Shown here piece by piece: positions 38,601 to 41,600 of a stretch of 64,000 bases of DNA (position 1 is the first letter of the stretch; each line of letters opens with the position of its first letter). The translations under genes and the position numbers were made by a program. The DNA comes from Haliotis cracherodii (Eukaryota), in the NCBI RefSeq assembly GCF_022045235.1, contig NW_027266286.1:44082001-44146000 (forward strand). The letters are read 5' to 3'. The notes under the pieces were generated by a model. The model saw only the letters and a program-made list of their open reading frames with translations. It searched no databases and was not told where the DNA came from.

Positions 38601-41600
38601 TGAACAATTTTTGTAGAAGTTATTCGATGAATCATAATACAAAAATGTTCACATACGACTTTGTACATGACTTTGGTGATTATAAGATCGTCGTTCGATC
38701 AAATCGTTGCATTTAAATGAGGTATATTTCACCATCTGATATTTAATTTTATGATTCAGCACAACATAGCATTTCACCATCAAAACAATATAACATTTCA
38801 CCATCAGTACAACATAAAATGTCACCATCAGCACAACATAACATTTCACCATCAGTACAACATAACATTTCACCATCAGTGCAACATAACATTTCACCAT
38901 CAGCACAACATAACATTTCACCATTAGCACACCATAACATTTCACCATCAGTAAAAATATCATTTCATCATCAGTATAACATAACATCTCACCATCAGTA
39001 CAATATAACATTTCACCATCAATTCAACATAACATTTCACCATCAGTAAAAGTATCATTTCATCATCAGTACAACATAACATTTCACCATCAGTACAACA
39101 TAAAATGTCACCATCAGTACAATATAACATTTCACCATCAGTACAACATAACATTTCACCATCAGTACAACATAAAATGTAACCATCAGTACAATATAAC
39201 ATTTCACCATCAGCACAACATAACATTTCACCATCAGTACAACATAACATTTCACCATCAGTGCAACATAACATTTCACCATCAGCACAACGTAACATTT
39301 CACCATCAGCACAATATATCATTTCACCAACAGTACAACATAACATTTCACCATCAGCACAACATATCATTTCACCATCAGTACAACATAACATTTCACC
39401 ATCAGCACAACATAATATTTCACCATCAGTACAACGCAACATTTCACCATCTGTACAATATAACATTTCACCATCAGCACAACACAACATTTCACCATCA
39501 GCACAACGTAACATTTCACCATCAGCACAACATATCATTTCACCATCAGTACAACATAACATTTCACCATCAGCACAACATATCATTTCACCATCAGCAC
39601 AACATAATATTTCACCATCAGTACAACGCAACATTTCACCATCAGCACAATATAACATTTCACCATCAGCACAACATAACATTTCACCATCAGCACAACA
39701 TAACATTTCACCATCAGCACAACGTAACATTTCACCATCAGCACAACATATCATTTCACCATCAGTACAACATAACATTTCACCATCAGCACAACATATC
39801 ATTTCACCATCAGTACAACATAACATTTCACCATCAGCACAACATAATATTTCACCATCAGTACAACGCAACATTTCACCATCAGCACAATATAACATTT
39901 CACCATCAGCACAACATAACATTTCACCATCAGCACAACGTAACATTTCACCATCAGCACAACATATCATTTCACCATCAGTACAACATAACATTTCACC
40001 ATCAGCACAACATATCATTTCACCATCAGTACAACATAACATTTCACCATCAGCACAACATAATATTTCACCATCAGTACAACGCAACATTTCACCATCA
40101 GCACAATATAACATTTCACCATCAGCACAACATAACATTTCACCATTAGCACACCATAACATTTCACCATCAGTAAAAATATCATTTCATCATCAGTATA
40201 ACATAACATCTCACCATCAGTACAATATAACATTTCACCATGATCACAATATAACATTTCACCATCAATTCAACGTTACATTTCACCATCAGCACAACGT
40301 AACATTTCACCATCAGCACAACGTAACATTTCACCATCAGCACAACGTAACATTTCACCATCAGTATAACATAACATCTCACCATCAGTAAAAGTATCAT
40401 TTCACCATCAGTACAACGAGACCCTGAAACTGCTGGACGTATCCATGAATGGATTTGGGTACGAAGGTTCTGTCGCCATGGCAGAGGCTCTCAAGGTCAA
40501 CATTTCCCTCCGAGAGTTGGACATGTCCTCTAACCGGATCACATGGAAGGGAGCCCTCATCATATCCGGGGGTCTTAAAGATAATAATGGCCTTGAGATA
40601 CTGAGGGTAAGAGCAATAATCACCGCATTTCAATTTGCTTTATACAAAGCCTGTTTAGAATTACCAGCTCTCATAATTATTAACGCAAGTACTAACGTCC
40701 GAAAATAATCTTAAGCTCAGGGGGAGATGACGTGAGCTGAAATGTGAAACCCTTTTCTAGTGTCCCCGCCATGATAGTGCTGGAGTATTGCTAAAAGCAG
40801 CGTGAAATCATACTCACTCACTCGCGAGCTGGAAGGAGAGACATTATTTCTATGCATATGGTATTGATCTTGTGAAAATAGAGTTCATTTTTCATGAAAT
40901 TTCAAATGTCACGAATCCAATATTGTCAATCTGTGATACATTGCAATGCAGTTATTAGACCAGAGTTACATTTTCTGTATGACAAAAAAAAAAAAATTGG
41001 GTGGTAAATGTATTCGCCGAACTGTGTTTCAGTTATAATGAATATGCTTTTAAATATTATACAAGTTTTGAAAATGATTTACGATTAAACTCATTTTCAT
41101 CAGATGTGACCCTTTCCAACATGTACCATTACAGGTCTTCACAAACATTGCTCTCTAAGTAACTCTTGTTTCTCCTTGCAGCTTGGAAAGAACCCATTGT
41201 CCACTACAGGATGTATGGATATCACAGAGGCCATAACGTATCCTGACTGTAACGTCAAGTTCCTGGATCTAACAGTAAGATTATATTTGAGTTGTTTGTT
41301 TGTTTGGTTGTTTGAAGCAGCACTCAGCAATATAACGACTATCTGATGGCGGGCTGGAAATAATCGAAAAATCCATTGAGTATGTTCTACATCGTCTTCG
41401 AAATCATCGATCATAATTATGAGCACCCAATCTTACAACCAGCACATCTTGCTGTGAATCAATTCTAACCCGGAATCTCCACAGTGTCTGGCGATATGAG
41501 AAATTTCGGAAACGTGGATTTAAAAAATAGGTCGGGTGATCTATTACCGAATTCTTATTTTGGAATTTGTACTTCGAACAGTAGCGATTAATGGGGTTTC

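Follow-up and report, generated by a model that had tools for sequence, protein, structure and literature searches.

How is a single 3′ splice site chosen when dozens of near-identical ones precede it? The question is raised by intron 7 of an LRRC74A-like gene of Haliotis cracherodii, located in a 64,000-nucleotide stretch of contig NW_027266286.1 (the whole of which is hereafter called the window), where the distal part of the intron is a minisatellite made of near-copies of the very junction through which exon 8 is entered. We consider it probable that this tandem array, copied from the gene's own junction, is tolerated and mostly silent, with exon 8 being entered at the last AG. The array is likely a harmless repeat of a described kind rather than a splicing switch, because assembled transcripts from two runs enter exon 8 at its last copy.

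The array and its host gene

The product of the host gene (Table 1), named Haliotis cracherodii LRRC74A-like and matched at 100% by the sequence 3′ of the array, contains Pfam LRR_6 and LRR_1 domains and has 639-aa LRRC74A-like relatives in H. rufescens, H. rubra and H. asinina. Mammalian LRRC74A is a component of the axonemal N-DRC according to the accessible text of PMC11779644, and the abalone protein, by its name, is a putative counterpart. N269, which lies within the exon letters copied by the array, is invariant in 20 of 20 aligned homologues, namely the four named abalone proteins and 16 single-stretch matches picked from 150. Elsewhere in the gene, the first six letters of exon 6 (37074–37079) recur in half of the array units (LRR periodicity), and the exon 7 acceptor (37578–37580) is an AAG with a T-rich tract.

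Table 1. Coordinates of the host gene, the array and its parts (positions in the window).
Feature	Position	Strand	Description
LRRC74A-like host gene	29633–43800	+	13 coding exons, 639 aa; exons with GT..AG introns translate exactly to protein P0001
Exon 7	37581–37666	+	ends in phase 0, in AAG; donor GT at 37667
Intron 7	37667–40411	+	2745 nt, phase 0; longest intron of the gene
Decayed copy of the terminal unit	about 38714–38738	+	TG in place of AG; local score 30
T-rich acceptor-like site	38739–38765	+	AG at 38758–38759, then copy of the first six exon letters; use would lead to a stop at 38925 after 55 codons
24-bp minisatellite	38756–40417	+	69.4 copies, 88% matches (Tandem Repeats Finder); unit is a junction copy, −17 to +7; 63 decoy yAG
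Higher-order block, copy 1	38904–39075	+	TAG unit (stop 38925) and two 23-nt units (38952, 39047); its end nearly reproduces the real acceptor
Higher-order block, copy 2	40126–40417	+	TAG unit (stop 40147), 23-nt units 40174 and 40389
Terminal 23-nt unit (used acceptor)	40389–40411	+	TAA ends the frame of upstream decoys and doubles as a TNA branch-like motif at −21; contigs align from 40410
Exon 8	40412–40606	+	195 nt; donor at 40607; second codon is N269

About 60% of intron 7 is taken up by the array. An 18-letter junction motif has 69 matches in the window, 69 of 69 of them inside the array, with 0.23 expected by chance. Parsing of 38784–40411 yields 68 units, which fall into 27 types; 64 are 24 nt long, and the other four, of 23 nt, begin with TAA (at 38952, 39047, 40174 and 40389); a yAG ends 64 of these 68 units and accounts for the 63 decoys and the real site. 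Each of the 67 upstream units shows one to six differences from the 24-mer that spans the junction from −17 to +7; six decoys are identical to the real site over −17 to +6, and the exon's G at +7 is retained in 12 of the 67 units. At a higher level of organization, 38880–39075 aligns to 40102–40417; the four 23-nt units belong to two copies of one block, and repeats of 9–10 units inside the array record past turnover.

The initial annotation had located the intron/exon junction within the 24-bp unit, listed four 23-nt TAA units with one directly before the true acceptor, and noted higher-order duplications, a description of the array that is essentially right. Its estimate of about 70 decoy acceptors stands as far as the reality of the array is concerned, but the count is 63 decoys and the real site, plus a strong AG at 38758–38759. 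We attribute the long open frames within the array, which reach 408 aa, to its 24-nt period; a protein search with the Cys-rich frame of its minus strand gave 0 matches among 3460 candidates.

Contigs from four of 18 listed runs were aligned to 40317–42900, a region whose array part consists of the last four units. A DNA contig of organism A (run X1) extends from exon 8 back to 40335, whereas for organism C (DNA run X8) one contig extends back to 40375 and a second covers 40319–40392, with 115 substitutions over 40375–42851, or about 4.6% divergence. Since the DNA contigs of both organisms reach the units, the 3′ end of the array is real and older than their split. Summed DNA depth in the bin 40317–40403 is 72.7 and 112, versus about 8 and 10 in unique parts, and is not a copy number; the zero depth of the same bin in both runs guessed to be RNA is a blank that carries no evidential weight. 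It is extremely improbable that an assembler inflated or invented the array: although there are two N stretches elsewhere in the window, one of them inside another array, the 27 unit types are distinct and follow ordered higher-order patterns, and DNA contigs of two organisms pass from exon 8 into the units. Most of the aligned contigs were drawn to 40743–40823 in intron 8, a short segment of a dispersed repeat present in very many copies, and the same SINE-like family recurs across the window.

Further minisatellites lie at 23863–26117 (51 bp), at 32938–33305 (30 bp; in intron 3 of the LRRC74A-like gene, 200 nt from the donor) and at 60706–60819 (32 bp). On the minus strand, 455–2420 holds an array with units of about 30 bp that reads as LDKHPPPPP repeats and is preceded by a disrupted zinc-finger-like peptide and an open stretch rich in Lys; it is flanked by a direct repeat of about 55 bp (about 455–507 and 1980–2035), with an N gap at 670–800, and its frame looks like a decayed mobile element or pseudogene. 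Comparison of the four other long arrays of the window with the exon edges of the LRRC74A-like gene gave no match. The minus strand also carries two near-identical multi-exon paralogues (4258–6833 and 14600–20560), which by eye we take to be M20-family peptidases (PM20D2-like), and the plus strand an apparently intronless open frame of about 315 codons (59380–60330) with ATP-grasp-like motifs read by eye.

Acceptor choice at exon 8

Entry into exon 8 can be followed in two runs whose RNA status is a guess (six of the 18 listed runs are guessed to be RNA, and none is recorded as such), the GT..AG joints in their contigs showing splicing despite this status. Record 9 of run X12 (organism A) aligns to 40410–40566 with 0 differences after 434 other letters, and record 16 of run X13 (organism C) aligns from 40410 and has exons 8, 9, 10 and 11 joined at GT..AG. 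In both assembled transcripts the last AG is the point of entry into exon 8, which is a statement about the main form: the two contigs have word depths of about 6 and 12, and rare forms are lost in assembly. We infer the join to exon 7 from the contig start at 40410, the position predicted for it because exon 7 ends in AAG. No insert at the intron 7/exon 8 junction was found in the four named abalone proteins, and the repeat peptide is present in 0 of 154 fetched proteins.

Nothing in the immediate sequence singles out the site that is used. Scored with a small acceptor matrix built from the gene's 11 other acceptors, which range from −2.2 to 12.6 bits, the exon 8 site reaches 0.6 bits. Because 56 of the 65 AGs in the array (a count that includes the used one) equal or exceed that score, and because six decoys equal the real site over −17 to +6, site strength and local sequence cannot explain the choice of the last AG; on the same figures, the locus is the natural test of acceptor choice that it had been proposed to be. 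Branch-like TNA motifs lie 19–37 nt upstream of the real site and of the inspected decoys alike, a range that is quoted in the accessible text of PMC10078293; the branch candidates are at −21 and −31.

The TAA of the terminal unit cannot serve as a special branch point that selects the real site, as the same −21 motif precedes decoys 38975 and 39070. A recursive-splicing array is contradicted by the T or C that follows AG in the units, leaving no AG-GT donor, and by the poor quality of the array's GT sites as donors; and a 5′-to-3′ scan that began at the exon 7 donor would stop at one of the first AGs.

The last AG differs from the others by position. It gives the shortest exon (195 nt), compared with 218–290 nt for the nearest four decoys, and the array offers no good donor: its 46 GT sites match at best six of nine consensus letters and none has G at +5, while the real donors of the gene match six to eight of nine. 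For these reasons the likely selector is exon definition, a general model of splicing, under which the last AG would be paired across exon 8 with the downstream donor; the other 63 sites would likely stay mostly silent.

The array could also influence splicing without any use of its AGs, as a C/A-rich, unstructured platform that recruits splicing regulators and alters exon 8 inclusion or intron retention. YCAY and CA-rich motifs are NOVA and hnRNP L sites; YCAY occurs at 91 per kb in the array versus 20 per kb in 29900–38700, and the predicted folding energy is −0.8 kcal/mol (39500–39750) versus −39.2 for a flank of equal length. Any repeat multiplies its motifs, however, the roles of the sites are putative, and exon 8 is included in both contigs; we regard such a platform as highly improbable.

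Stops, frames and origin of the array

Full-length protein comes only from the last AG, as had been claimed: all 63 decoys lead to a stop before the exon 8 donor, with five junctions downstream. The decoy frame consists of (Y/H)NITFHHQ repeats and then a stop, the longest resulting His-rich tail being 359 aa. The idea that upstream AGs would add such repeats in frame is correct in that the intron is phase 0 and the frame opens in this way, but the 23-nt units shift the register, so that the distance to exon 8 is a multiple of 3 for only 3 of the 63 decoys, whose frames end at 39047. The TAA units, put forward as the stops for decoys, act as the first stop for 14 of the 63; the remaining 49, however, meet a TAG variant first (38925 or 40147). 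Even without its TAA, the one-base deletion of the terminal unit suffices to block decoys, since the resulting frame ends at TGA 40425.

This all-stop arrangement is not beyond chance. When unit order was shuffled 2000 times and the 1850 orders ending in an AG unit were counted, 9.6% had no productive decoy; because as many shuffles equal it and the short units have a single block origin, the arrangement does not look designed. Of the marks of a regulated poison-splicing switch, a premature stop well upstream of later junctions is found for all 63 decoys, whereas the stop-bearing element is not placed or conserved beyond chance, and the designed-poison reading is weak. Under the 50–55-nt rule for NMD substrates, a rare slip to a decoy, with its premature stop and five junctions downstream, would be a likely NMD target; the array would therefore be tolerated rather than selected.

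We think it unlikely that use is instead leaky and unregulated, with the nearest decoys or AG 38759 taking a minor share, NMD clearing the products, and the terminal frameshift unit being kept as a stop for faulty LRR proteins with inserted repeats. Such leakage would fit the universal stops, the low score of the used site and the four decoys found no more than 300 nt from the exon 8 donor with branch-like motifs at −32; yet the all-stop result is reproduced in 9.6% of the counted shuffles, the 23-nt unit occurs three times inside the array as well, copied with the block, and the last AG is the one found in both assembled transcripts.

The suggestion of a VNTR-tuned poison-splicing/NMD switch, or of a source of truncated His-rich isoforms, was not borne out. 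Under a switch, array length would set the share of poison splicing and with it the level of the LRRC74A-like protein, or else truncated His-rich proteins with tails of up to 359 aa would be made. The anatomy permits this, the 3′ end of the array is common to two organisms, and a human intronic VNTR is reported to affect ABCA7 splicing (PMC5954066). It is nevertheless very unlikely, given that both contigs use the last AG, that the repeat peptide is absent from the 154 fetched proteins and no insert is seen at the junction, and that the placement of stops is not significant and goes back to one block; no evidence of regulation was found in the two contigs, the protein comparison or the shuffles.

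Two observations count against a silent array: its 3′ end persists at about 4.6% divergence, which neutral decay alone does not predict, and repeat-borne AGs are usable, expanded CAG repeats being reported to create acceptors in the accessible part of bioRxiv 10.1101/2023.10.16.562581.

As to origin, the array unit copies the junction, and not the reverse, because N269 is invariant in the 20 homologues and the 67 upstream units all lie near the junction 24-mer. A 24-nt slip may have duplicated −17 to +7; growth would have been possible on the intron side only, and unequal exchange would later have given rise to the 9–10-unit and whole-block repeats. Long arrays cover 9.2% of the window, and occasional junction-seeded arrays would therefore be expected in such a genome. 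Two metagenome scans, one with the exon 8 start and one with the array unit, returned 0 loci each.

The 5′ edge of the array adds a possible trace of its history. The score of 30 of the decayed terminal-unit copy is reached by 0 of 2000 random intron pieces (maximum 26). The AG at 38758–38759 scores 10.2 bits, the best in intron 7, versus 0.6 bits for the used site, and we tentatively suggest that the ancestral acceptor may have been this AG, left stranded as the array grew. Very doubtful is the further proposal that the array displaced this original strong acceptor, now 1.65 kb upstream, so that exon 8 has since been served by a weak site built from the repeat, and that the decoys, together with the stranded site, divert into NMD a share of splicing that scales with array length, thereby forming a length-tuned dial on a ciliary or sperm axoneme protein in abalone.

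Relation to mirages and other junction repeats

The array is a minisatellite of the amphioxus "mirage" type, a kind already described. Amphioxus mirages are reported in Adh3, troponin C, the globins BflGb6 and BflGb9, and PGBD5; in the accessible text of these reports, the splice signal survives in most units and normal splicing proceeds unaffected (PMC3087553, PMC3902484). Length instability is likewise reported for mirages in the text available. Four of their five defining features are found in the abalone array, which is a minisatellite-like tandem, has a unit that spans the exon–intron boundary of the host gene, keeps the splice signal in many, though not all, units, and shows regular splicing at the exon-adjacent copy (main form).

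Like the amphioxus mirages, the abalone array thus consists of tandem copies of its host gene's intron/exon boundary (PMC3087553, PMC3902484, as accessible); like BflGb6, it copies the 3′ end of the intron together with the 5′ part of the next exon, and its 24-bp unit falls within the 10–72 bp covered by the Adh3 units. It differs in belonging to a mollusc and not a cephalochordate, in having about 69 copies versus 3–6 in BflGb6, and in carrying only 6–7 exon letters per unit, unlike the amphioxus mirages as described in those texts. A mollusc mirage was not found in the literature searched, whose coverage of subscription journals is incomplete; a 27-bp minisatellite in an intron 3 is described in that literature, and the accessible part of its report does not place it at a junction.

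A 37-bp VNTR in intron 7 of human F7 resembles the abalone array in that its end unit spans the real boundary and only the exon-adjacent site is used, identical pseudo-sites being silent (accessible text of PMC1557585). F7 concerns the donor side, with 5–9 sites, whereas the abalone array concerns the acceptor side, with 64; and the used site is the first to be transcribed in F7 but the last in abalone (PMC1557585). Because the used site is the last transcribed, a 5′-to-3′ first-come rule cannot explain the choice made in abalone. In addition, the F7 pseudo-sites were proven functional by mutation (PMC1557585), while the abalone decoys are putative sites.

In duplicated human genes, internal tandem repeats at exon–intron boundaries can give rise to alternative splicing and to new introns, according to the available text of PMC2812944; in contrast, the abalone contigs contain no retained-repeat transcript or new intron. 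The ABCA7 VNTR (PMC5954066) and human splicing-associated tandem repeats (PMC10078293) are, like the abalone array, intronic repeats near splice sites, and for both a measured effect of length on splicing is reported; in the abalone array such an effect would be hypothetical.

In summary, the locus presents a clean, high-copy, acceptor-side mirage in a mollusc, and a substrate for the question of how the spliceosome picks one 3′ site among identical local sequences when the one in use is transcribed last and ranks among the weakest. It is well suited to experiments through its high copy number, its weak used site and the strong site left stranded. Junction arrays of this sort can also cause errors in gene prediction and in the mapping of spliced reads. 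Were decoy use to scale with length, the array would amount to a repeat-tuned NMD switch; and if 38759 is the ancestral acceptor, the locus records the turnover of a splice site by repeat growth.
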